Assembly (NCBI GenBank): GCA_965261605.1 | Contig: OZ253466.1 | Span: 336,724 to 400,723 of the forward strand | DNA length: 64,000 bases | Direction of reading: 5' to 3' | Source of the DNA: Dehalococcoidia bacterium | GTDB lineage: Bacteria > Chloroflexota > Dehalococcoidia > Lucifugimonadales > UBA2985 | Shown: one piece after another, positions 3,863-36,725 of the stretch | Layout of the letters: the number at the start of each line of letters is the position of its first letter | Numbering within the stretch: the stretch's first letter is position 1 | Notes under the pieces: model-generated | What the model was told of the DNA's origin: nothing | The model's database searches: none | Seen by the model: only the letters and a program-made list of their open reading frames with translations | Translations under genes and position numbers: made by a program

Positions 3863-4126
3863 CTACGTAGTCAGTAGCGTAAGTTATAAGTGGTTGCTCA
3901 GTCAAATGCTACCACCGTCCAGGGCGGGTCCCTCTACCGCGGTCTACCGTGGCACCGCCCGCCCCGGCGCGCCGCCGAGTTCGAGGTGATGGTCGACGAG
4001 TTCCCGCAGGCCCAGGCGCTGGGCGAGGGCGGCCTCGCATCCCGCTGCCGGGCTGGCCGGACGGCGATACGCCGGGAGCTAAGGTGACTTTAACGTACTC
4101 TATGCCGTAGCGCTCTCAAACGGTAT

Positions 4127-5389
4127 TCAACCTGAAGGCTGACTACCCGTGCCGTATTTCTTGTCAAACGCTCGTAATGCATCACGAAAGCATTCCATCG
4201 GGGGACGAGAAAGCCCGCCACCTATGATTGGGTACCCCGGGTCTTTATGTGCTATGGCCGTGTCTACGATAGGAAGAATCCCAGTTTGAACTACTTTCCG
4301 GATATCGATCCCCACAGCTGGTCCTTTGAAGTCGAGGGCCGGTATCGGAAACTCTGGACTCAGATCCACAGTAATGTCGCGCATGGCGTGGGTGTAGCCC
4401 ACGGCTTCTTCCAGCGTTCCACCAACCAGGGGGAGGATTCCTGGGGCGCTGCCCAGTAAGAACCCACCTAGACCCAACGTCTCAATAATGGCAGAATCTC
4501 CCATATCCCGGCCGGCGTCACTTCGGCCGAATCCGGGCAGAAATATCCCATCAAGCACTGGAGCACGAGCAACAAACCATTCAGAGTCTAGGCCACTGAC
4601 CTGGATACCGACCTGGTAACCATTCCTGGACATTACTGTCACCACAGTGGAGTAGGGAATCCCCTTCGCGGTGTCCGCTGTAGATTTTGCCGATGCCATT
4701 ACAAGTCCCATATAGAGCAACTCGTGGCTGGCCATAAAGTCGATCGTACTGAGCAGGTCATCCTGAGGAACGTCCGCTTTGATCATGGGAGCGACAATCG
4801 CATTCGCAAACATAGAAGTCGCTGCAGTCGTGCGGTTGTGTAACTCATCGCCCATCTGTAGCGCTTTCGCTGTCAGCGGTTTCAAGTCTAGACCGCCGAT
4901 GTGCCTAATCCCTTTGGCGATTGAGGGCGCCCAGACGTCTCTCCACATTCGCAGCTCCTGAATGGCTTCCTCATCGAACGCGCCAAACTGCTGCCTGTCC
5001 TCTACCAGCCGGCAGTAAGCCCTATTCCCAAAGGCTCGGTTCTCCACGACATAGACTGGCAGCGATTTGGTGATTGTACCGGCCATGGGGCCCACGGCGG
5101 AATGGTGATGATTGCAATCCAGCGCAACGTCTCCGCTGCTTAAGAGTCGCTCAGCCTCCTCTCTTGAGGAAGCCCACTCCTCGAATAGCGCCATTGCTAT
5201 GCAGGCGCCCTTCTGGGCACCGCTCATGTGCTCCCAGTCAACCGGGGGTCCCGAGTGCAGAACCATCCGGTCGTCCAGCCCCGGTACAACATCTCCTGCC
5301 TGGCATACATCAACGAGGACCGGATCGGCCCGGTTAATTCGGTCAAACGCTTCGCGGTTCGCCTGCTCTATCTTCTCTTCTACAGTAAT
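4127..5389 (-). CDS. DUF1116 family protein (E. coli YlbE/AllG-like)
   Basis: The body resembles YlbE (LHSGPP..W..M.G..KGA, HH.AVGPMAG, GDSAIIETLGLGG). The frame stays open upstream of the first ATG (5266) and encodes ITVEEKIEQANREAFDRINRADPVLVDV, which matches the family N-terminus. I therefore extended the 5' end to the ATT at 5389, 9 nt after AGGAGG. Confidence 0.7.
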   Translation of the reverse strand: MTVEEKIEQANREAFDRINRADPVLVDVCQAGDVVPGLDDRMVLHSGPPVDWEHMSGAQKGACIAMALFEEWASSREEAERLLSSGDVALDCNHHHSAVGPMAGTITKSLPVYVVENRAFGNRAYCRLVEDRQQFGAFDEEAIQELRMWRDVWAPSIAKGIRHIGGLDLKPLTAKALQMGDELHNRTTAATSMFANAIVAPMIKADVPQDDLLSTIDFMASHELLYMGLVMASAKSTADTAKGIPYSTVVTVMSRNGYQVGIQVSGLDSEWFVARAPVLDGIFLPGFGRSDAGRDMGDSAIIETLGLGGFLLGSAPGILPLVGGTLEEAVGYTHAMRDITVDLSPEFPIPALDFKGPAVGIDIRKVVQTGILPIVDTAIAHKDPGYPIIGGGLSRPPMECFRDALRAFDKKYGTGSQPSG

Positions 5390-5570
5390 AACACCGTACC
5401 TCCTGTCCTCAACATTTATTTCAAACCTGCAACATTCCGGTCGACTGTCCTACGCGCATATCCCACCTTCATACGATCCCAACCCTGGTTGTCGCCATAT
5501 CGAGTCCATGTTGCTAGCCCGATCCCCCTCTACCGGATTACGACTGCGTGGAACGCCATACCAGGGAAGA

Positions 5571-7070
5571 TCATGTCTGGGATTCAAGTGCAGACGCCAG
5601 AGCGAACAGGATGCCATCATCAAAGGGAGAGGCTACCATCTGAGCGCCAACCGGCAGTCCATCTGGCGTGAAGCCGCTGGGCACTGAAATCGCCGGGACT
5701 CCTATGAAGCTCCAGGGAATACAGTTGGTGGAGAGAATTATCAGATATGCGTCTGCATCCTCCAACTTTGGGGCCGCAACCTTGGTCGTGGGCATGATGA
5801 GAGCGTCAAACCCTGACAGATGGGCTAACATGCGTTCCTGAAACTCGGACCGGAAACGCTGCGCGTTTATATAGTCCATGGCCTTAACCTTGGACGCCTC
5901 ATCCAACTGCTCAAAGACCGGACGGGTGTATTGAGACCTTGCATTGGAAAAAGATTGGTGGTAGGCCGCCGCTTCACTTCGGCTTACGATGAGCCCGAGA
6001 GATGTCGCCAGGCGGTAATCCTCTGCCGATGGAGTCTCAGTTTCTACCACTTCTACACCTAATGAGGATAGGGTTTCTACGGTCTTGCTGAAAGCTGCAA
6101 GCACGTCCGGATCAACATCCTTCAAGCCGTTTACTGCCAAACCCACACGCAACCCGCGTACATCGCGGTGCAGGTAGTCCGTGTAGTCGTCCCTGGGACG
6201 ATCTAAAGACGCAGGGTCCTTGGGGTCAACGCCTTGAAGCGCGTTCATCATATGCGCCACGTCCTGAGCGGTCTTCGCCTGAAGACCAGCGTGGTCCATG
6301 CTCCAGGAGAGTGTAATAATGCCGTCTGTGGACACGAGTCCGAAGGTCGGCTTGTAACCCACAATGCCGCACAGCGCTGCGGGAACACGGATGGATGCCC
6401 TAGTGTCAGAGCCCAGGCTCAGAAAACTCATCCCGGACGCAATAGATATGGCGGAACCTCCGCTGGACCCGCCCGGGTCTCTCGTTGTATCCCAGGGATT
6501 CCGGCTCTGGGAAGTGGTCACGCCCAGAGCAAACTCGTGAGTATGGACCTTGCCCATCACAATCGTACCCGCCTCTTTGAGGAGCCGAACCGGGGTGCCA
6601 TCGTCCTCTGGTATGTAGCCCGCCAAGACCTTGGAACTCGCTGTGGTGGGCATTCCTTTAACGTGCACAATATCTTTCACGGAAATGGGAATGCCATGCA
6701 GAGGCCCCCGCAGCGCCCCTCTTTCCCGTTCCCGGTCAAGCGCATTTGCCTCCTCCAATAATGCAGCAGCAGGAGCTACGTGAACAAAGGCATTGAGCAC
6801 CTTGTCTTTGGATTCAATTGCGGCCAACGCTTCTAGCACCAGCTGTGATGCAGAAGTCGAACCCGCTGCCATGCGACTTGCAGCTTCGACCAGTGTTCCC
6901 TCTTTGGCGTGGCCGGGCGTAACCCTTGGTAAGGCCCTCACGTCACGGCGATTAGGGTCCTCATGTCTCGCCAGTGAGTATATGAATGCAGGTCGACGGG
7001 AAAGGCCATCGACTTGATATGCCTGAAGATCGGCCAACGCAGCTTGAAAATCGTCTCGTGCAGACATCAA
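5571..7070 (-). CDS. Amidase-signature family amidase
   Basis: It carries the GGSSGGSA amidase-signature core and is 499 aa long, typical of GatA/allophanate-hydrolase-like amidases. Confidence 0.85.
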   Translation of the reverse strand: MMSARDDFQAALADLQAYQVDGLSRRPAFIYSLARHEDPNRRDVRALPRVTPGHAKEGTLVEAASRMAAGSTSASQLVLEALAAIESKDKVLNAFVHVAPAAALLEEANALDRERERGALRGPLHGIPISVKDIVHVKGMPTTASSKVLAGYIPEDDGTPVRLLKEAGTIVMGKVHTHEFALGVTTSQSRNPWDTTRDPGGSSGGSAISIASGMSFLSLGSDTRASIRVPAALCGIVGYKPTFGLVSTDGIITLSWSMDHAGLQAKTAQDVAHMMNALQGVDPKDPASLDRPRDDYTDYLHRDVRGLRVGLAVNGLKDVDPDVLAAFSKTVETLSSLGVEVVETETPSAEDYRLATSLGLIVSRSEAAAYHQSFSNARSQYTRPVFEQLDEASKVKAMDYINAQRFRSEFQERMLAHLSGFDALIMPTTKVAAPKLEDADAYLIILSTNCIPWSFIGVPAISVPSGFTPDGLPVGAQMVASPFDDGILFALASALESQT

Positions 7071-19802: not shown

Positions 19803-19845
19803 CGTCAACGTGAAGGTTCTTGATTTTGTCCAGCTTGGTGGGCCA
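19803..19845. repeat. Direct repeat copy B (overlaps the tRNA-Ile 3' end)
   Basis: This is the partner of 17744-17786. Positions 19836-19845 lie inside the tRNA gene. Confidence 0.8.
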
Positions 19846-19912
19846 GCGTGGATTCGAACCACGGACCTCAGTCTTATCAGGACTGCGCTCTAACCACCTG
19901 AGCTACTGGCCC
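19836..19912 (-). tRNA. tRNA-Ile (anticodon GAU), CCA encoded
   Basis: The minus-strand sequence GGGCCAGTAGCTCAGGTGGTTAGAGCGCAGTCCTGATAAGACTGAGGTCCGTGGTTCGAATCCACGCTGGCCCACCA folds into a canonical cloverleaf. The anticodon loop is CTGATAA. Confidence 0.95.
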
Positions 19913-27904: not shown

Positions 27905-28213
27905 CTAGATGCCTCCCCTGCCACCGTTCCCCCCAAACTCGTGGTTGCTGAACACGCCCACGTCCCTACCCTGATGCACGTGTATTATCAGCTCGTCCCT
28001 GGAAACCCCCACCACGTCCACAATCTCCTCGTCTATTGTCTCGATGAGCTCCTGTATGGCCTCCTGGGTAAGGCTCTCGTCGACGCACAGGGTGGCGTGA
28101 ATGACGGCGGGAGTGAGATGGATGTCCAGACGCCCTACCGGCGCGTCCTCCTCCAGCACCGTGTACACTTCCGAATAGGGGGTGCGACACTCCCGCTCAA
28201 AGCCGTATTCCAT
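27905..28213 (-). CDS. Hypothetical acidic protein (102 aa)
   Basis: The ORF lies 15 nt downstream of proA on the same strand. I see no recognisable motif. Confidence 0.45.
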   Translation of the reverse strand: MEYGFERECRTPYSEVYTVLEEDAPVGRLDIHLTPAVIHATLCVDESLTQEAIQELIETIDEEIVDVVGVSRDELIIHVHQGRDVGVFSNHEFGGNGGRGGI

Positions 28214-28228
28214 GTACGCTCTCCCCTT

Positions 28229-29503
28229 CTAGGCCCTTACCTGGCCGGTGCCCAGGATGGTCCACTTGTAAGAAGTCAGCTCCCGAAGGCCCATAGGCCC
28301 CCTGGCGTGCATCTTGTTGGTGCTTATTGCCACCTCTGCCCCCAGTCCGAGCTGGCCGCCGTCTGTGAAGCGGGTGCTGGCGTTGACGAGCACCGCTGCG
28401 GCGTCCACGTCGTCCAGGAATCTCATGGCGCTGGAGTAGTCTTCGGTTACGATGGCCTCGGAGTGACCCGATCCGTACTGCTCAATATGCTCCAGGGCCT
28501 CATCCATCGAGTCCACCACCTTCACAGATGCCGTGAGAGACAGGAATTCCGTGCCCCAGTCCTCCTCCGTCGCCGGCTTCAGGTTGAGCACCTCAGACGG
28601 GCCGAGAATGCTCAACGCTCGGAGGTCGCAGTGCATCTCCACCCCGGCCTTGGCCCACTCCCGCGCTATGGCCGGCAGGCATTTGGGTGCGGCCTCAGAG
28701 TGCACCAGGAGTGTGTCCAGGGCGTTGCACACCGTTGGCCTGCTCACCTTGGCGTTGTATGCAATGGCCACGGCGCTCTCCAGGTTGGCGTCCTTGTCAA
28801 CGTACGTATGGCACACACCGACACCGCCGGTGATCACAGGCATCTGGGCCTTCTCTCCCACGTATCGGACAAAATCTGCGCCACCGCGAGGAATCAGCAA
28901 ATCGATATGCTCCTTCATAGCCAGCATTTGCTCAACCAACGCTCGATCTGTGGCGCCGACGAACTGCACCGCATCCCGTGGCGCGCCCGCCTCGGCGATG
29001 GCATCTCTCACTAGGTTGGCAAGCGCGGTGTTGGAGTGTATTGCCTCACTTCCGCCCCTAAGGATGACTGCATTGCCCGACTTGAAGCAGAGCACGGATA
29101 TGTCCACGGTGATGTTGGGACGACTTTCGTAGATGGCGCCGATGACTCCAAGGGGCACACGGCGGCGACCCACCTGAAGGCCGTTGGGCAGTGTACGCAT
29201 GTCAAAGGTCTCCCCTACCGGGTCCGGCAGAGAGGTCACAGTGCGAACGTCGGCGGCCATGCCGTCAAGCCGCTCCGAGTTCAGTAGAAGACGCTCAAGC
29301 ATGGCGTCGCTTAGACCGGCCTCTTTTCCGGTCTGAAGGTCTCTCCGGTTCGCTTCGAGTATCTCAGTCTCCCTGGTCTTGAGAGCGTCGGCAATGTTCA
29401 GCAGCGCCCGGTCCTTCACGCCCGTAGAAAGCCTGGCCAGATGGCGAGCGGCGGCCCTGGCAGCCAGTCCTTTGGCGGTTAGCTCATCTATTGCTGTGGT
29501 CAT
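28229..29503 (-). CDS. proA: Gamma-glutamyl phosphate reductase ProA
   Basis: It has a full-length ProA-like aldehyde dehydrogenase fold (IYESRPN, catalytic CNA region VCNALDTLLVH). Confidence 0.95.
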   Translation of the reverse strand: MTTAIDELTAKGLAARAAARHLARLSTGVKDRALLNIADALKTRETEILEANRRDLQTGKEAGLSDAMLERLLLNSERLDGMAADVRTVTSLPDPVGETFDMRTLPNGLQVGRRRVPLGVIGAIYESRPNITVDISVLCFKSGNAVILRGGSEAIHSNTALANLVRDAIAEAGAPRDAVQFVGATDRALVEQMLAMKEHIDLLIPRGGADFVRYVGEKAQMPVITGGVGVCHTYVDKDANLESAVAIAYNAKVSRPTVCNALDTLLVHSEAAPKCLPAIAREWAKAGVEMHCDLRALSILGPSEVLNLKPATEEDWGTEFLSLTASVKVVDSMDEALEHIEQYGSGHSEAIVTEDYSSAMRFLDDVDAAAVLVNASTRFTDGGQLGLGAEVAISTNKMHARGPMGLRELTSYKWTILGTGQVRA

Positions 29504-29544
29504 ATAGCACCTTGCCTGTCTTTCCGTATTGAATCTTACTACGT

Positions 29545-30426
29545 CTATGCTTTAGCCCATTCTACATTACGGCCAATAAGCAGTTCAGTTGTCTTTGTGT
29601 GATGTGTACCGGACATGGATATGGGCTCAACCTGAAATCCATATCGATCTGCCAATTCCTTTACCATAGAAGCATCGTCATAGGTCATCAGAAAGTCACC
29701 CTTGAGCTGTCTGGTAACGTCAAAAAGCAAAGCGTGATCCAGCTCGTAATGAGTGTACAACCGCGCCCCTGCTCGTTTCCCTCCTGCCGTGTAAGGCGGG
29801 TCCATAAAGAACACGGTGTTGGTGTCTTGAAGGTGAAGCTGCATGAATTCAATACCATCTCCTTGATGGAACTGTATATGCTCTCTCATTGAAGCTATAG
29901 CCTTGATACGTTTAGCCAGTGTTTCCGGATACCATCTTGACCTGAGGCCCTTACCGTTTTCGCCTTGTTTAATCAATCCGCTACCTGCCGCCAATATTCC
30001 ACCGTGGACAACCCTGTTTTTGAGCAGAGTCTGAAAAGCTCTCTCCTCAATGAAGTCTGGGCTGGAAGCAAGAACCTCCTGTACGTTTTCAAGAGTCAGC
30101 TCAAAATCGATTATCCGACTTGCCAGCCATTCGGCATGTCCATTAAGGATCGCATACCAGACACTACTGACGTTCTCGTCTACCTCAATCATCACCGCAC
30201 GGTCAGCCAAGCCCTCAAATACCGCGGTCAGACTTACTATGCCTCCGCCGGTAAAGGGCTCAATAAGCACTTTGGGGGGTTGCTGCTGACTCATCAACCA
30301 TCGTCGCACCCAAGGGACTAACCACGTCTTACCGCCTGGGTATCTAAAGGGGCTACGCTGAGGCACTGAGGATACGTTGACGGTGCGCCCGCCATAGTTC
30401 TGAGGTAGGAATGAAAGTTGAGTCAT
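29545..30426 (-). CDS. N6-adenine DNA methyltransferase, D12/Dam class (alpha order)
   Basis: It has FRYPGGK, motif I EPFTGGG, then motif IV FFMDPPY, in the order typical of Dam-like enzymes. Confidence 0.85.
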   Translation of the reverse strand: MTQLSFLPQNYGGRTVNVSSVPQRSPFRYPGGKTWLVPWVRRWLMSQQQPPKVLIEPFTGGGIVSLTAVFEGLADRAVMIEVDENVSSVWYAILNGHAEWLASRIIDFELTLENVQEVLASSPDFIEERAFQTLLKNRVVHGGILAAGSGLIKQGENGKGLRSRWYPETLAKRIKAIASMREHIQFHQGDGIEFMQLHLQDTNTVFFMDPPYTAGGKRAGARLYTHYELDHALLFDVTRQLKGDFLMTYDDASMVKELADRYGFQVEPISMSGTHHTKTTELLIGRNVEWAKA

Positions 30427-30429
30427 GGC

Positions 30430-31320
30430 TCAAAGATCCACTTCAATTGTTGGAGCATCCGGAGAATTGTCGTCCTCTAGTTTTCTATCTAGTTTCGTCT
30501 GAAGGTGTTCAATGAACTCATATTCATCGCCGGGGGCCGGCCGAGTAATCTGAGTCAAAGCAGTTTCAAAGCTTGTATAAAGAACACGGTGACGGGATAG
30601 AACGTACTCCGTTCTTGTTAAATTAGGTTGCAGATCATACACCAGCCAAGCGACTTCCGCCATCTCACGGCTTGTTTCCGTCAGATCGGGCAGCGTGCGA
30701 AAGAGGTTCTTGTCCATGGCAACAGCCATCTTTCGGCCCCAAGCGTTTAGAATGCCACCCTTGAACATCAATTGGGGAGCTAGGCGTTTGCGCGAGGAAG
30801 ACAAGTAATCCGCTCTTGGATAGTACTGCCTCCCTCTCCAGACCATATCTTGACGCGCAAAGGGGTCTTCCATGTAGTATTCGAAAGGACGCCTGACATT
30901 GCCCGAAATATAGACGGCTTGCACCTCTAACGCGCCAAACTCGAGTACGCGTCCGCGGTCATTGTAAGAGACAAGAACAACATCTATGTTTCCGGCGGAT
31001 TTCCCGTCCTTGTCGCTTAGACGCACTTCGGTCAATGAAGTCCACGAAGTGCCCTCGGGAAAGAAGAAGTTAGCCGCATCCTCGGCAATAATCCAGTCCT
31101 GTCTAAATCGAATAGGACATGTAACTGCGATTTCGCCCTCATCAAAAATACTACAAACGCCCAAAGGATCGCTGGCCTTGTCCTTTGTGCAACTGGGCAC
31201 CCTGTTGTTGAACGGACACAGCCGGTTATCGCGATACCTCTTTGCCTGATCAGATACGTTATTTGCGGGATATCCAAACACCTCGGCAAGAGGGTGTTGA
31301 GGAGCTATATTCTCAATCAT
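30430..31320 (-). CDS. Type II restriction endonuclease, NotI-family-like
   Basis: The N-terminal four-Cys pattern (CPF...SCTK...GVCS...CPIRF) and later blocks (LEVQAVYISGN, SSSRKRL..QL) parallel NotI as I recall it. It lies 3 nt upstream of the methyltransferase gene. Confidence 0.65.
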   Translation of the reverse strand: MIENIAPQHPLAEVFGYPANNVSDQAKRYRDNRLCPFNNRVPSCTKDKASDPLGVCSIFDEGEIAVTCPIRFRQDWIIAEDAANFFFPEGTSWTSLTEVRLSDKDGKSAGNIDVVLVSYNDRGRVLEFGALEVQAVYISGNVRRPFEYYMEDPFARQDMVWRGRQYYPRADYLSSSRKRLAPQLMFKGGILNAWGRKMAVAMDKNLFRTLPDLTETSREMAEVAWLVYDLQPNLTRTEYVLSRHRVLYTSFETALTQITRPAPGDEYEFIEHLQTKLDRKLEDDNSPDAPTIEVDL

Positions 31321-31344
31321 TTCTTATGTCCATAACGCCACAGT

Positions 31345-32475
31345 CTACAACAATACCATATTGTTGCGGTGCAGCACCTCTTCGCTGAACCGGTAGCCCA
31401 GGGCCTCCTCTATCTTGTCGGAGCGCAATCCCCTGATGGCGCTAACGTCAGTGGCGCTGTAGCCGGTGACACCGCACGCTATTCGCTCACCTTCGGGGTC
31501 CACCACCAGTATTATATCGCCCCTGAGAAAGTCGCCCTCCACCTCCCTCACACCCGCGGGAAGCAGGCTGCGGTGGTGCATGCGCAGCGCCTCGGCGGCC
31601 CCTGTGTCGACCAGAATCCGCCCGCGTGTGGAGAGTCCGCTGAGCATCCATCGCTTGCGGCTCTCCATCTTGCTGGCAGTGGGGGCGAAGTAGGTTCCTA
31701 CCGACTCCCCGGACGCCAGCCTTGACACTACCTGGTCAACCTTGCCGCTCACCAGCGAGACCGCTACTCCGGAGGCCGTCGCCAGCTTAATCGCTGACAG
31801 CTTTGCCTGCATACCGCCGCGGCTTCTGGAGCTGTGGCGCGGCCCGGCCATAGCCATTATCGCCTCGTCAATCACCTCAACCCGGGGGATTATCCGGGCA
31901 TTCGGGTCCTCATGCGGGTCTGCTGTGTAGAGACCGCCGATGTCGCTGAGAACAATGAGCATGTCGGCGTCGATCAGGTTCGCCACCATGGCGGACAGGT
32001 TATCGTTGTCTCCGAACCCCAAGTCTCGCACCTCATCCGAGGCGACCACGTCATTCTCGTTGATTATGGGAATAACTTTGAGATCCAGAAGCGCCAACAG
32101 CGTGTTTCGCACGTTGAGGTACCCCTCTCTGTCCAGCACGTCCCTTCTGGAGAGCAGGGCTTGGGCTACAGTGATGTTATGCGCCTCAAATAGCTGCTCG
32201 TAGGTTCGAACTAGACGGCCCTGACCAACGGCCGCCAGGACCTGACGGAACGGTATGTCATCCCTCCCACGATTGACGCCCAAGGTGTGCCTGCCGACGG
32301 CCACAGCGCCGGAGGTCACCAGAGCCACCTCCATTCCCTGACCATGGACGTACGCCAACTGCGCCACCAGAGAGGCGATGACCTCCTGGTCCAGGTTGTC
32401 GCTGCCTCCGGTCAGGACGTTTGTCCCGGCCTTTACTACAATGCGGCGGTACCTGTATGACTCTTGCGATTTCAT
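31345..32475 (-). CDS. proB: Glutamate 5-kinase ProB (with PUA domain)
   Basis: It has RIVVKAGTNVL and an amino-acid kinase core plus a C-terminal PUA region. An upstream GTG at 32514 is also possible. Confidence 0.9.
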   Translation of the reverse strand: MKSQESYRYRRIVVKAGTNVLTGGSDNLDQEVIASLVAQLAYVHGQGMEVALVTSGAVAVGRHTLGVNRGRDDIPFRQVLAAVGQGRLVRTYEQLFEAHNITVAQALLSRRDVLDREGYLNVRNTLLALLDLKVIPIINENDVVASDEVRDLGFGDNDNLSAMVANLIDADMLIVLSDIGGLYTADPHEDPNARIIPRVEVIDEAIMAMAGPRHSSRSRGGMQAKLSAIKLATASGVAVSLVSGKVDQVVSRLASGESVGTYFAPTASKMESRKRWMLSGLSTRGRILVDTGAAEALRMHHRSLLPAGVREVEGDFLRGDIILVVDPEGERIACGVTGYSATDVSAIRGLRSDKIEEALGYRFSEEVLHRNNMVLL

Positions 32476-32655
32476 CAACGCTGCTCTACTGATTCGGGAA
32501 TTCTCACAGCCCACGGCCGATTATATCAGCAATTGTCTATGTCGACAGCATTGCGCGTTCGACAATCCGCTTATAGCACAGAGGCCAGAGGCATCAGCCG
32601 CCGACCCTTCATACGGCAATGGAGCAGAGAACGGGTCGGCTGACACCGGCGTGCC

Positions 32656-33906
32656 TTATAATCCTCGCGGCCCGGTGGATGCCTTGTAGGCCCGCCAGTT
32701 GCGGCGCGTCTCCTCGATGTGGTCGCCCCCGAATTTCTCCAGCATGGCCTCCGCCAGCGCCAGCGCCACCATAGCCTCACCAATTACCGCGCAGGTGGGG
32801 ACGAAGGTGATGTCACTGCGCTCAAAGTGAGCGCGGTTCACAAAGTCACCTGTGGTCAGGTCCACGGTCTCCAGCCCATTGATGATGGTCGCTATTGGCT
32901 TGACAATAGCCCTTACCACCAGTGGCTCTCCGGTTGTCATACCTCCCTCCAGACCGCCGGAGTTGTTGGTGCGCCGCGGCCAGGGCCGCACCCAGCCCTC
33001 GTCAGCGCCGCGCTCCCACTCTTCCAGTGGCTTGACAACATCGTGTACCTGGGAGCCCCGCATGTCCGCCTGGGTGAAGCCTGCGCCAAATTCCACCCCC
33101 TTGACCGCGTTTATGCTCATAACGGCGGCGGCCAGTTTGGTGGTCAGCTTGCGGTCCCACTGGATGTGGCTGCCAAGGCCAATGGGCGCGCCGGTGGCCA
33201 CAACCTCCATTATGCCGCCGACGCTGTCACCCGCCTCTCGCGCAGCGTCGATCTCAGCTATCATCCGCTCCGCAGCATCGGGGTCGGCGCACCGCACCGC
33301 GGCCGTCTTTGAGCCTTCCTGGTTCTCCCTGTGGTAGGGCGTTTCCTCAAGCGCCCCCCAGTCTATGTTGTCCGGTCGGTTCGCATGTACACCGCCAATG
33401 CACAGAACATGACCATGCACCTCAATACCGAACTCCTCAAGAAAGCGCTGTGCCAGAGCGCCTGCAGCCACGCGCGCTGCGCTCTCACGAGCGCTGGAAC
33501 GCTCCAGGATGTTGCGAGCGTCCGACTGCATATACTTGACAATCCCAGGAGTGTCGGCATGGCCCGGCCGTATGCTGGTTATAGGCTCGAAGGGAACGTC
33601 CGACGGAGCGACGCTCATCTCCTCGGTCCAAGGTACGCCGTCCGGCCCCTTGCCAGTGATAAAATCCCTGTTCACGACGAGCATTGAAATGGGTGAGCCC
33701 ATAGTGAGGCCGTGTCGCACCCCGGCGAGGATCTCAGCACGGTCCTTCTCTATCTGCATACGGCCGCCGCGCCCGTAGCCCACCTGGCGTCGGGCCATAT
33801 GCCGCTCAATGTATTCCTCCGTAATGGGCAGGTTCGCGGGAATACCCTCCACAATCACAGTCAGGTTTTTGCCGTGGGATTCCCCCGCCGTAAGAAATCT
33901 CAGCAT
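32656..33906 (-). CDS. aroC: Chorismate synthase AroC
   Basis: It has MLRFLTAGESHGK, GRSSARE-like and other chorismate synthase signatures. Confidence 0.95.
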   Translation of the reverse strand: MLRFLTAGESHGKNLTVIVEGIPANLPITEEYIERHMARRQVGYGRGGRMQIEKDRAEILAGVRHGLTMGSPISMLVVNRDFITGKGPDGVPWTEEMSVAPSDVPFEPITSIRPGHADTPGIVKYMQSDARNILERSSARESAARVAAGALAQRFLEEFGIEVHGHVLCIGGVHANRPDNIDWGALEETPYHRENQEGSKTAAVRCADPDAAERMIAEIDAAREAGDSVGGIMEVVATGAPIGLGSHIQWDRKLTTKLAAAVMSINAVKGVEFGAGFTQADMRGSQVHDVVKPLEEWERGADEGWVRPWPRRTNNSGGLEGGMTTGEPLVVRAIVKPIATIINGLETVDLTTGDFVNRAHFERSDITFVPTCAVIGEAMVALALAEAMLEKFGGDHIEETRRNWRAYKASTGPRGL

Positions 33907-33919
33907 AGATCAGCTCCTT

Positions 33920-34417
33920 CTAAGAATTTACTTGCGCCATTAACTTTTGCTCCCGTCCGATAGTCGGGACGGCGTCACAGTCTTCAACTACCAAAGCGCG
34001 TCCAACCACTCTCAATGCCCTCTCGAGCTGGCTGACGTGTGTGCGGTATCGTGGATCGACGAGCTTTCGGACGGCGTCCTCGTCAAGGCTCAACTTTGAG
34101 GCCATATCGGCGTAGGTGATGCCCTGCTCACGCATGGCGGTGTAGATGGTCAGCTTGGCTGCTACCAGGAATGGCACGGGAATCAGAACCTGGCCGTCCC
34201 TGGCCGGGCTGGGCATCGGAAGGTCTTCACCGGCCTTCACGTACATCCCCAGCGCAACGCCCAGGCCGTCCTCGGCCATCTCAATGGCTTCTTCCCAAGA
34301 CCATCCGCACGTAATGGCCTCCGGCACGTCTGGGAAAGTCACTCCGTAGGCTTCCCTTCCCGTTGTCATTCTCTCTTCTTCATCAAGAACGATGTTGGAC
34401 GGATAAGCGTATCTCAT
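33920..34417 (-). CDS. hicB: HicB-family antitoxin with C-terminal HTH
   Basis: The N-terminal HicB fold (YGVTFPDVPEAITCGWSWEEAIEMAEDGL) is followed by an XRE-like HTH (GITYADMASKLSL). Confidence 0.8.
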   Translation of the reverse strand: MRYAYPSNIVLDEEERMTTGREAYGVTFPDVPEAITCGWSWEEAIEMAEDGLGVALGMYVKAGEDLPMPSPARDGQVLIPVPFLVAAKLTIYTAMREQGITYADMASKLSLDEDAVRKLVDPRYRTHVSQLERALRVVGRALVVEDCDAVPTIGREQKLMAQVNS

Positions 34418-34419
34418 AT

Positions 34420-34626
34420 TTAGAACTCCCGTCGATTGATGTCAAGCTGCCTCAGCATATTTGCTAGGGTGTTTGGGGCAATCTCGCCGTACTGCACTAT
34501 AGTCTTGAACTCGCCTATACGGACCTGCCCGTGACTGCCCTTTCCCCGGCTTGGGTCGAAGCTGAACTCTAAACCGTTGCGGCGGGCGTATCGCCTTGCT
34601 CGCCTCACGAATTCCCTACCGTTCAC
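34420..34626 (-). CDS. hicA: HicA mRNA-interferase toxin
   Basis: It has KGSHGQV (the GSH motif) and a HicA-sized body. I chose the GTG start at 34626, which overlaps the aroE stop as GTGA. The longer ORF-track start (34707) would lie inside aroE. Confidence 0.75.
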   Translation of the reverse strand: MNGREFVRRARRYARRNGLEFSFDPSRGKGSHGQVRIGEFKTIVQYGEIAPNTLANMLRQLDINRREF

Positions 34627-35489
34627 AATCCCGGCGGCTGCCTGGCTGCAAGAGCCTCCTCCGCAGCGCTGAACATCACCCGTACAGGCGCCTCCACACC
34701 GGTCCATATCTCAAAAGCGGCGGCTCCCTGGTACACCAGCATAGGCAGTCCGCCGAGGGTCTGTGCGCCGGCCATGCCGGCCTCTCGAAGCAGGGGCGTC
34801 ACCCTGGGATTGTACACCAGGTCGCAGACCAGCGTCTGCGGCGGGATGATGCCGGCGCTGATTGGAGTCTCTCCCTCGCCCGGGCCGCCAGTCATACCCA
34901 GAGAGGTGCAGTTGACGATAAGGTGGCTCCCGGACGCCGCCGGGCGAAGGGAGTCCTCACCCAGGGGAATCGCTTCAGCCGATACTCCCATGCGGCGTAT
35001 GCTCTCCACCAGGGCCACAGCCCTATTGAGAGTCCGGTTGGCGACGACTATGCTCTCGACACCTTCTCCGGCCAGGGCAACTGTCACAGCCTTGGAAGAG
35101 CCGCCGGCTCCCAGGACCAGCGCCGTCTTCCCGCGCGGGTCGAACTGGGCTTCCTCTCTCAAAGCAGTTAGGAAGCCTTTGGCGTCGGTGTTGTGGCCCA
35201 CCAGTATCCCGTCACGATTCTCTATGGTGTTGACGGCGCCAATCAGCCGGGCCTCTTCCATCACCGAGTCCAAGAATGGGATCACCGCTTCCTTATGAGG
35301 AACTGTGACGTTGGCCCCGAGCACATCCGGGTCTCGCAGTGAGTTGATTGCCTCGGGCAAGGATGATTCGGGCACATCCATAGCCTCGTAGCGCGCGTCA
35401 ATGGAGTGATGGTCGAGGGCGGCCTGCTGGAAAGCGGGAGATACGGAGTGGCCGACGGGATGGCCTATGAGAAAGATGCGCTTGGTCAT
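34623..35489 (-). CDS. aroE: Shikimate dehydrogenase AroE
   Basis: It has IGHPVGHSVSP, NVTVPHK and LGAGGSSKAV motifs. Confidence 0.9.
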   Translation of the reverse strand: MTKRIFLIGHPVGHSVSPAFQQAALDHHSIDARYEAMDVPESSLPEAINSLRDPDVLGANVTVPHKEAVIPFLDSVMEEARLIGAVNTIENRDGILVGHNTDAKGFLTALREEAQFDPRGKTALVLGAGGSSKAVTVALAGEGVESIVVANRTLNRAVALVESIRRMGVSAEAIPLGEDSLRPAASGSHLIVNCTSLGMTGGPGEGETPISAGIIPPQTLVCDLVYNPRVTPLLREAGMAGAQTLGGLPMLVYQGAAAFEIWTGVEAPVRVMFSAAEEALAARQPPGL

Positions 35490-35916: not shown

Positions 35917-36663
35917 CTAGCTGGCTACGAACTCCAGGACATCCTTGTACTTCCCGTAGCAGTCAGGACACAAGGGTTTGAGCAAAGTCGCCGAATGTTC
36001 GTTTCCGCAGGTGTGGCAGAGCTTTTCCTTAAAACCCCTGTTCTTGTGCCGATTCCAGATCGCGTAGCAACGTCTACAGTACGGCTGAGTCGGATTGGCC
36101 GGCAGGTCAACCTTGCACCGGATACAGAAGCCCTTCTCCGGTTTCGTCAGAGTGGGTTTGGATTCTCTTGTAATCATCTTCGGTGCTACGTTTTCCCTGA
36201 CATTTTCAGTAGCTTCTATCTTGTCGACGGTCACTCGGATGATTTCGCTTGCCCTTACAAGCCGCATAGATTCTTCTTTAATATCTTGGTAGAGTTCAGG
36301 GTCTTGGTCGCGGGATACAATAATGCCCATCTCGTTGTTATTTATCTGTGAGAACTCGTAAAGATTCATTGAGGTCAGGAGCGCCTCATTCTCATTCATA
36401 TAGCATTTAGCATGAAGGTTCTGCAAGAACCCGGTTTTGATCGAAGTCATTGACCTGAGCCAGTTATTTTCCTCGGGTCTCAGTTCGTTTTTTCCATAGA
36501 TTACCCACACATCTATCCTCAAGCGGTCCTTATCCTCAAGGAGTTCTTTGATACGATCGTTAACCCTGAGGAACGGGCTGATAATCACTAGACGCTCCCT
36601 GGCGTTCTTTATTATTTCTGAAAGCTGGAACGAGACCCCTGGTGTATCAAGGAATTTAGCCAT
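35917..36663 (-). CDS. PLD-family (HKD) nuclease-like protein with two C-terminal zinc ribbons
   Basis: It has a single HKD-type motif HAKCYMNENEALLTSMN. The C-terminus has CIRC-x12-CRRC and CHTC-x12-CPDC. The start is set at ATG 36663 (MAKFLDTPG) after GGGAGAG, because the ORF-track start at 36702 would overlap the predicted -10. Confidence 0.75.
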   Translation of the reverse strand: MAKFLDTPGVSFQLSEIIKNARERLVIISPFLRVNDRIKELLEDKDRLRIDVWVIYGKNELRPEENNWLRSMTSIKTGFLQNLHAKCYMNENEALLTSMNLYEFSQINNNEMGIIVSRDQDPELYQDIKEESMRLVRASEIIRVTVDKIEATENVRENVAPKMITRESKPTLTKPEKGFCIRCKVDLPANPTQPYCRRCYAIWNRHKNRGFKEKLCHTCGNEHSATLLKPLCPDCYGKYKDVLEFVAS

Positions 36664-36687
36664 ATTGAACTCTCCCTGAATGGATTG

Positions 36688-36725
36688 CAATGAGTATAGC
36701 AAGGGGATGCAAAGAGGGGCAAGCG
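36688..36725. repeat. Promoter-containing direct repeat, copy R (drives the PLD gene)
   Basis: This is the partner of 35527-35565. On the minus strand it reads TTGCCC-18-TATACT (36717-36722 and 36693-36698), 30 nt upstream of the PLD ATG. Confidence 0.7.

Follow-up and report, generated by a model that had tools for sequence, protein, structure and literature searches.

Restriction–modification (R-M) units have been documented as mobile elements that enter operon-like gene clusters (PMC2993543; Furuta et al. 2010, PMC2853133). In the insertions described by the Kobayashi group, a pair free of mobility genes separates two housekeeping genes that run in the same direction and remain intact, and the empty site is seen in a related genome. 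An R-M pair that shares these features is described here from a 64,000-nucleotide stretch of a Dehalococcoidia genome (contig OZ253466.1 of assembly GCA_965261605.1, positions 336,724 to 400,723; hereafter the window), where the genes of a nuclease, R, and a DNA methyltransferase, M, are located between proB and proA. However, the Kobayashi-group cases usually show long target duplications (~40-100+ bp) and are polymorphic among strains, whereas the window cassette has no convincing duplication, its spacers to proB and proA being 24 and 41 nucleotides (nt), and its insertion is old and fixed in its clade.

Cassettes of this composition have been annotated by NCBI as [quoted passage not shown]. 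They have the same R-then-M order and the same two protein families, with R being 58-66% identical across Chloroflexota, cyanobacteria, Thermus and others, and the window pair is a member. In contrast to annotated cassettes that are carried on a Thermus plasmid next to a tyrosine recombinase, or that stand beside other R-M genes (loci L084 and L160), the window cassette lies within a biosynthetic operon and is vertically inherited.

The account that we consider probable is that the pair is a functional, promoter-less Type II R-M cassette, which was inserted long ago, has been inherited vertically and is transcribed by the host. On its own it is ordinary, a further Type II R-M system from a family that is abundant and has been named, and both the cassette family and the situation of an operon insertion are known already. 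Its added value is an insertion that is old, vertically kept and under selection, together with a caveat on the methylated base and a hint that selfish modules recurrently settle in the intra-operon spacers of Dehalococcoidia.

The cassette between proB and proA

The locus is read on the minus strand. The upstream host gene, proB (glutamate 5-kinase, 31345-32514), was assigned from its open reading frame (ORF) and a match to the NCBIfam equivalog TIGR01027 (407 bits), and its start in the gene calls of relatives is ~13 codons downstream of the window ORF start. It is followed by R (30430-31320, 296 aa (amino acids)), identified as a NotI-family PD-(D/E)XK nuclease by Pfam, predicted fold and motif alignment, and by M (29545-30426, 293 aa), identified as an alpha-class D12-family DNA methyltransferase by Pfam PF02086, PADLOC and motif order. 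The downstream host gene, proA (glutamate-5-semialdehyde dehydrogenase, 28229-29503; NF001221, 598 bits), is intact. The gaps read from the sequence are 24 nt from the proB TAG to the R ATG (31321-31344), 3 nt between R and M (TGA-GCC-ATG), and 41 nt from the M TAG to the proA ATG (29504-29544). The original prediction, which was made from the letters of this DNA, had placed two same-strand genes between proB and proA with these three gaps, and its coordinates were borne out by the ORFs.

The empty state of this junction was observed in L004, a Dehalococcoidia metagenome-assembled chromosome (OZ242025.1) whose proB and proA are 89% and 90% identical to those of the window and are separated by a 36-nt spacer without the cassette. 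Alignment of the filled and empty junctions, together with the GC profile, delimits an inserted cassette of ~1.8 kb at approximately 29535-31338 (minus strand), consisting of a ~18-nt leader, R, the 3-nt spacer, M and a ~10-nt trailer. In the proB-R spacer, the first ~6 nt match the beginning of the spacer at the empty site and the remainder is the leader, while the last ~30 nt of the M-proA spacer (ATTCAATACGGAAAGACAGGCAAGGTGCTAT) are the original proB-proA spacer. The insert damaged neither the proB stop nor the proA ribosome-binding site: the proB C-terminus (...HRNNMVLL*) is identical to that of L004, and the Shine-Dalgarno-like AAGGTG of proA lies within the ATTCAATACGGAAAGACAGGCAAGGTGCTAT spacer and is kept in the empty site.

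The junction was then compared among 59 relatives, counted as the Dehalococcoidia with proB upstream of proA on the same strand. The proB-proA gap is at most 150 nt in 37 of the 59, which together with L004 agrees with the expectation that proBA is usually contiguous. The cassette is present at the identical junction in L001, L002 and L003, with M intact in L002 and L003. The cassette is also distinct in base composition: the GC content of R and M is 0.49, whereas the flanks have 0.60-0.63, and GC content at third codon positions (GC3) is 0.50-0.51 as opposed to 0.72-0.78; across all four cassette genomes, GC3 is 0.42-0.51 in the cassette and 0.72-0.88 in host genes. The pair had been judged by eye to be more AT-rich than proB and proA, and the measured differences are large, supporting a foreign composition of the cassette. 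The empty site in L004, the adjacency of proB and proA in most relatives and the foreign GC3 together support the view that the cassette was inserted at a junction where proB and proA are otherwise contiguous; genes of this kind are not universal at the junction in relatives, nor is their composition host-like. No mobility gene was found in the cassette. A search for target duplications or terminal repeats gave best matches of 8-12 nt, with shuffle p values of 0.01-0.03 in some lineages and no match in others.

A divergent NotI-family nuclease

NotI is the closest characterised relative of R by structure. R has the same Pfam family (PF12183), the same fold, the N-terminal Cys4 metal-binding motif and, in a sub-threshold alignment, a candidate ExQ element of the catalytic motif. 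However, R is only 13-16% identical to NotI, is 296 aa long compared with 383 aa, and is partnered with a D12-class methylase, and the GCGGCCGC specificity of NotI is not transferable to it.

The match of R to PF12183 is strong (E 1.1e-60, 205 bits against a cut-off of 22) and covers profile positions 4-237 of 238, as a profile search of the predicted NotI similarity was expected to show. An AlphaFold model built with 60 homologues reached a predicted local distance difference test score (pLDDT) of 84.5 and a predicted template modelling score (pTM) of 0.82. When this model was compared with the PDB by Foldseek, NotI (3C25/3BVQ) was the sole significant match, with E 2e-10 and a query-normalised template modelling (TM) score of 0.70, the next match having E 0.05. 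Searches of PDB sequences with R as a single sequence and with a profile of close homologues both gave no match, and a profile of 35 diverse family representatives reached NotI by sequence with E 2e-4. In the alignment from this diverse profile, C35, C44, C56 and C68 of R are aligned to the NotI cysteines in CPF, SCVK, GVCVV and VCPNR, respectively. Among the 60 homologues, C35, C44 and C56 never vary and C68 is conserved to at least 90%, in agreement with the NotI-type N-terminal four-Cys pattern that had been recognised in the sequence. The segment L-E132-V-Q134 of R stands opposite L-E182-I-Q184 of NotI in a sub-threshold HMMER segment, and D113, E132 and Q134 are invariant across the 60 homologues and are candidate catalytic residues. 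On the basis of the fold match, the diverse-profile alignment and the invariant Cys, Asp, Glu and Gln residues, R is, as judged from its sequence and model, a genuine yet very divergent NotI-family PD-(D/E)XK nuclease.

The partner methyltransferase and the distribution of the pair

M matches PF02086 (MethyltransfD12) with E 4.8e-12 and 46.6 bits (cut-off 22). It contains FRYPGGK and EPFTGGG (motif I, residues 56-62), followed by DPPY (motif IV, 209-212), which is the alpha order and the order in which EPFTGGG and DPPY had been read from the sequence, so that the alpha-class assignment stands; both motifs are invariant in 30 homologues. PADLOC identified M as MTase_II and as PD-Lambda-5_B (143 bits). 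The match to TIGR00571 ("dam") reached 32.7 bits over the N-terminal region only, below the cut-off of 114.85. A profile of the M family found M.CbeI (7M6B) in the PDB with E 2e-10 over the full length, making it the closest solved relative, with 25% identity to M. Assignment of M as an orthologue of Dam (GATC) was rejected, given the missed TIGR00571 cut-off and the E of 0.3 that the same family profile gave for E. coli Dam structures.

The pair is widespread. In a large sequence collection, 6369 homologues of R were found, mostly 60-66% identical, which form 734 clusters at 50% clustering. Chloroflexota, cyanobacteria and Parcubacteria are among the hosts, and the name "NotI family restriction endonuclease" is already attached to many of these homologues. 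Of 83 additional loci, 79 have M immediately downstream of R in the same orientation, and contig ends account for three of the four others; M also follows R in all six contexts that were examined individually. The same annotated pair is located beside a tyrosine recombinase on the Thermus brockianus plasmid pTbrSNM4-1c (NZ_AP025595.1), and this pair, together with the linkage in the 79 loci, indicates that R and M are one unit. At the additional loci, the cassette GC is on average below that of the host (0.49 vs 0.56). Elsewhere, the cassette is found beside MmeI-like genes (L084, L160) or in mixed-orientation contexts. A search of a phage collection returned one weak match only, and literature searches for "NotI family" with methyltransferase, for "NotI-like" methylomes and for Thermus brockianus methylation found nothing usable. 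The pairing is not unusual, being present in thousands of genomes and named by NCBI, and by its sequence the window pair is a Type II R-M pair of this abundant and already named kind.

PD-lambda-5, a compact prophage R-M plus abortive-infection (RM+Abi) system (Vassallo et al. 2022, PMC9519451), was also considered, as its methylase component PD-Lambda-5_B is the component that M matches. Membership of the window pair in this system was rejected, since the methylase alone matches: R has no match to PD-Lambda-5_A and only a weak match to REase_II.

The methylated base and the recognition site

The original prediction reasoned that an adenine methylase implies a recognition site containing A, and from this a possible new specificity. 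This reasoning is not secure, as neither the D12 class nor the DPPY motif fixes the base. M.CbeI, the enzyme in PDB 7M6B (PMC8616854), is annotated as a D12 N6-adenine methylase and has DPPY, yet experimentally it is an N4-cytosine methylase acting at GGCC; it is 57% identical to Anabaena DmtB (PMC3425538). In addition, a NotI-family R on a Sedimenticola plasmid, 33% identical to the window R, is paired with a C5-cytosine methylase, and a C5 partner also occurs at L102. The N4-methylcytosine (m4C) activity of M.CbeI and these two C5 partners are the reasons why the adenine inference is insecure. For annotation, this is a caution that the label "D12 adenine methylase" with DPPY is insufficient to assign adenine methylation, and that inferences on specificity derived from it are unsafe. 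The recognition site of the pair probably contains C/G, and the product of M may be either N6-methyladenine (m6A) or m4C.

At L102 (2747-4876), an R that is 63% identical to the window R is preceded by the C5-cytosine methylase, which ends exactly at the R start codon, and no D12 methylase was found downstream of R. Judging from the sequence, one methylase appears to have been exchanged for another within a single nuclease subfamily, which has a bearing on what recognition site is possible.

Avoidance of candidate sites was analysed both in the 62 kb of the window outside the cassette and in pooled sequences, comparing the flanks of ~80 cassette loci with ~80 cassette-free Dehalococcoidia loci, and GGCC-core sites were assessed in a GC-matched analysis with bootstrap. 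In the window, the values were 0.68 for GATC, 0.71 for CATG, 0.29 for AAGCTT and 0.93 for GGCC. In the pooled flanks, GGGCCC was the most depleted 6-bp palindrome relative to controls (0.41 vs 0.77, ratio 0.52, bootstrap confidence interval 0.32-0.80), and CGGCCG had a ratio of 0.69; the depletion of GTCGAC, GGATCC and CTCGAG was similar to that of the GGCC-core sites. Motif depletion had been suggested as a way to find the site of the pair, and neither the window nor the pooled flanks pointed to one uniquely depleted site.

These data bear on an alternative assignment of M, namely that M is an N4-cytosine methyltransferase like M.CbeI and DmtB, acting with R at a G/C site with a GGCC-type core akin to that of NotI (GCGGCCGC), for example GGGCCC or CGGCCG, so that an A is unneeded. 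The full-length match of the M family profile to M.CbeI, much better than that to E. coli Dam, is in line with this assignment, as are the demonstrated m4C activity of M.CbeI despite its D12 class and DPPY motif (PMC3425538, PMC8616854), the C5 methylase partners of R in L102 and on the Sedimenticola plasmid, and the depletion of both GGGCCC and CGGCCG in cassette flanks. However, the identity between M and M.CbeI is low, D12 enzymes are mostly adenine-specific, GTCGAC, GGATCC and CTCGAG are depleted about equally, and the window shows no avoidance of GGCC itself. Mrr restricts m6A- and 5-methylcytosine (m5C)-modified DNA. The cloning of PD-lambda-5 needed an mrr-deleted host (PMC9519451), and the strong match of M to PD-Lambda-5_B thus suggests m6A or m5C over m4C. 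Furthermore, the partner CbeI is a HaeIII-family nuclease, and the two systems are not homologous as units. Taken with these points, m4C methylation at a GGCC-type site is possible but rather unlikely.

CbeI/M.CbeI of Caldicellulosiruptor bescii (GG/CC; m4C) was compared with the window pair as a system as well. The R-then-M order and the D12-class methylase with DPPY are shared, whereas CbeI belongs to PF09556 and R to PF12183. For this reason, the window pair was rejected as a CbeI/M.CbeI-type GGCC system, and the comparison is kept as a caveat on the methylated base.

Transcription and proposed function

No sigma-70-like promoter was detected on the minus strand between 27.5 and 34.5 kb. 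On the same strand and interval, a single weak terminator-like site was found, inside M, and the count of such sites is below chance expectation. The short leaders (24, 3 and 41 nt), the absence of promoter-like sites and the below-chance count of terminator-like sites make it likely that the cassette is co-transcribed with proBA. Translational coupling of M to R is likewise likely, as only 3 nt separate the R stop from the M ATG and M probably shares translation with R.

In the proposed working of the cassette, R and M would most likely be transcribed within the host co-directional aroC-proB-proA array. Within the host genome, M would methylate a short recognition sequence, unmethylated copies of which R would cut. 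The cassette may in this way act as a defence against incoming DNA and, presumably, cause post-segregational killing upon loss of the pair.

Several observations weigh against this account of a functional, host-transcribed R-M cassette. The promoter scan used the sigma-70 consensus, from which Chloroflexota promoters may differ, making an internal promoter possible. The catalytic Asp of R, D113, was assigned by conservation and fold without a significant NotI sequence alignment. The R of L002 (6001-6891, protein P0005) carries C68S at the fourth cysteine, suggesting that either the Cys4 site is not strictly needed or that copy of R is impaired. Finally, the site-avoidance analyses revealed no uniquely depleted palindrome, which is weak evidence against strong long-term restriction of the host genome. 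Apart from C68S, the R of L002 evolves under the same constraint as the other R copies.

The C68S substitution and the lack of clear site avoidance, together with a vertical retention that is unusually long for an R-M system, would also fit a pair that no longer restricts, with R inactive or repurposed and M an orphan epigenetic methylase retained by the essential operon. However, the ratio of nonsynonymous to synonymous divergence (dN/dS) is 0.04-0.14 across both genes, 0.04-0.13 for R and 0.07-0.14 for M, showing that both are under purifying selection and that selection on R is at least as strong as on M. In addition, D113, E132, Q134 and three of the four cysteines are invariant in the 60 homologues, and the linkage of R and M is near-universal in the family. 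A loss of restriction is therefore quite improbable, and the functional R-M cassette is retained as the preferred explanation. The locus would then be a clean natural example of an R-M pair held long-term inside an essential amino-acid operon under purifying selection, which is relevant to the debate on R-M systems as transient selfish elements versus stable residents.

Age and inheritance of the insertion

The age of the insertion was examined through synonymous divergence (dS). Judged by flanking-gene dS, the lineages branch as ((W,L001),(L002,L004)),L003, in which W is the window and the empty L004 is the sister of the filled L002. Between the window and L001, the cassette dS is 0.19-0.28 and the host dS 0.11-0.18; the corresponding ranges are 1.15-1.25 and 0.6-0.8 for L002, and 1.2-1.6 and 1.0-1.1 for L003. 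The cassette dS thus follows the host branching order, at ~1.5x the host rate.

The composition of the cassette was examined through polarised third-position changes. Within the cassette, 15 changes are GC-to-AT and 11 are AT-to-GC, a balanced pattern which places the cassette near its own compositional equilibrium. Cassette GC3 stays at 0.42-0.51 in all four genomes even though synonymous sites are saturated, and its low GC is no sign of recent acquisition. Low GC as evidence of recent transfer was accordingly rejected, on the strength of both dS and the polarised substitutions. In host housekeeping genes (window 27905-33906, with orthologues in L001-L004), the ratios of GC-to-AT to AT-to-GC changes are 38:4 and 61:6, an excess that may be overstated owing to parsimony polarisation and saturated outgroups. 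Since recent changes in these genes are AT-biased, the high host GC3 (0.72-0.88) must be actively upheld, by selection or by biased gene conversion working against an AT-biased mutation input, and is not the neutral end-point.

The insertion is considered old for three reasons: four lineages share it, its sequence has diverged in agreement with the host tree, and its GC3 has settled at an equilibrium of its own. The simplest history is one old insertion, followed by vertical inheritance with both genes functional and by a clean loss or allele replacement in L004. The cassette, R then M, would have entered the ~36-nt proB-proA spacer of a Dehalococcoidia (Chloroflexota) lineage long ago and would have been passed on vertically since. 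Of the earlier claim that the R-M system has invaded a biosynthetic operon, the insertion stands on the empty site of L004, whereas a recent invasion does not agree with the presence in four lineages and the host-congruent divergence. A recent horizontal gain, with the filled allele then spread by homologous recombination through proB and proA, would fit the low cassette GC3 in all four genomes, the higher aa identity of R (87%) than of proB (73%) between the window and L003, and the difference between the sisters L002 and L004, but it is highly improbable, as a recent sweep would give near-identical cassettes whereas the cassette dS equals or exceeds that of the flanking genes in every pair and keeps the host branching order, and as the balanced third-position changes place the cassette at its own equilibrium.

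Other modules in operon spacers

The same cassette family was found within two further operons. In L086 (5001-6793, Dehalococcoidia), it lies between purM and purH with gaps of ~13 and 7 nt, and M overlaps purH; in L099 (~3998-5756, a metagenomic contig), it lies between aroC and aroK with gaps of ~17 and 3-6 nt. Between purF and purM, L086 additionally carries a PIN-domain gene accompanied by a small partner.

The proB-proA junction itself holds other cargo in 19 of the 59 Dehalococcoidia relatives (proA loci L004-L083), and it may be an insertion hotspot. This cargo includes HicB/HicA pairs in L022 (5429-5949), L030, L036 and L039, a fused N6/N4 methylase with an Mrr-type nuclease domain in L031 (4260-5975), a TIR-domain effector of the CAP12/Pycsar type in L054 (4677-5843), and retropepsin-like small proteins in L014 (5622-6005), L016 and L025. 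UbiE-type methyltransferases, an ABC (ATP-binding cassette) transporter and assorted enzymes were found there as well. The proB-proA and other intra-operon spacers thus repeatedly house addiction or defence modules, a possible rule of genome architecture in the streamlined, uncultured Dehalococcoidia. Tentatively, and with more doubt than confidence, it may be proposed that promoter-less selfish or defence modules use the short housekeeping-operon spacers of Dehalococcoidia as preferred "safe-harbour" sites. If this were true, the modules would borrow host transcription and their polar disruption would be penalised; unusually long vertical persistence (dS >1) and a stable non-host codon composition would go with it.

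Possible further inserts are seen in the co-directional array of the window, which reads alaS-ruvX-(PLD-like)-aroE-(hicA-like/hicB)-aroC-proB-R-M-proA-orf102. Between aroE (34623-35489) and aroC (32656-33906), the minus strand carries a HicB-like antitoxin gene (PF15919) with a small upstream ORF (33920-34707). The pair is kept in L001, whereas L002 has two copies of it, L004 a diverged version and L003 none; it looks like a second addiction-type module within the same housekeeping array. A PLD-like (PLDc_2) ORF between ruvX and aroE (35917-36702, minus strand, GC 0.44-0.51) also occurs in L001 and, in a shorter form, in L002, but not in L003; it may be a third variable insert.

Directly 3' of proA, a 102-aa ORF (27905-28213, minus strand) has no Pfam match. 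The ORF is highly conserved in each of the four relatives, L004 with its empty site included (91-100% aa identity, dN/dS 0-0.08), and probably belongs to the proBA array as a genuine gene. The sole RNA gene found in the 64-kb window by Rfam and ARAGORN is a tRNA-Ile (GAT) at 19836-19912 on the minus strand.

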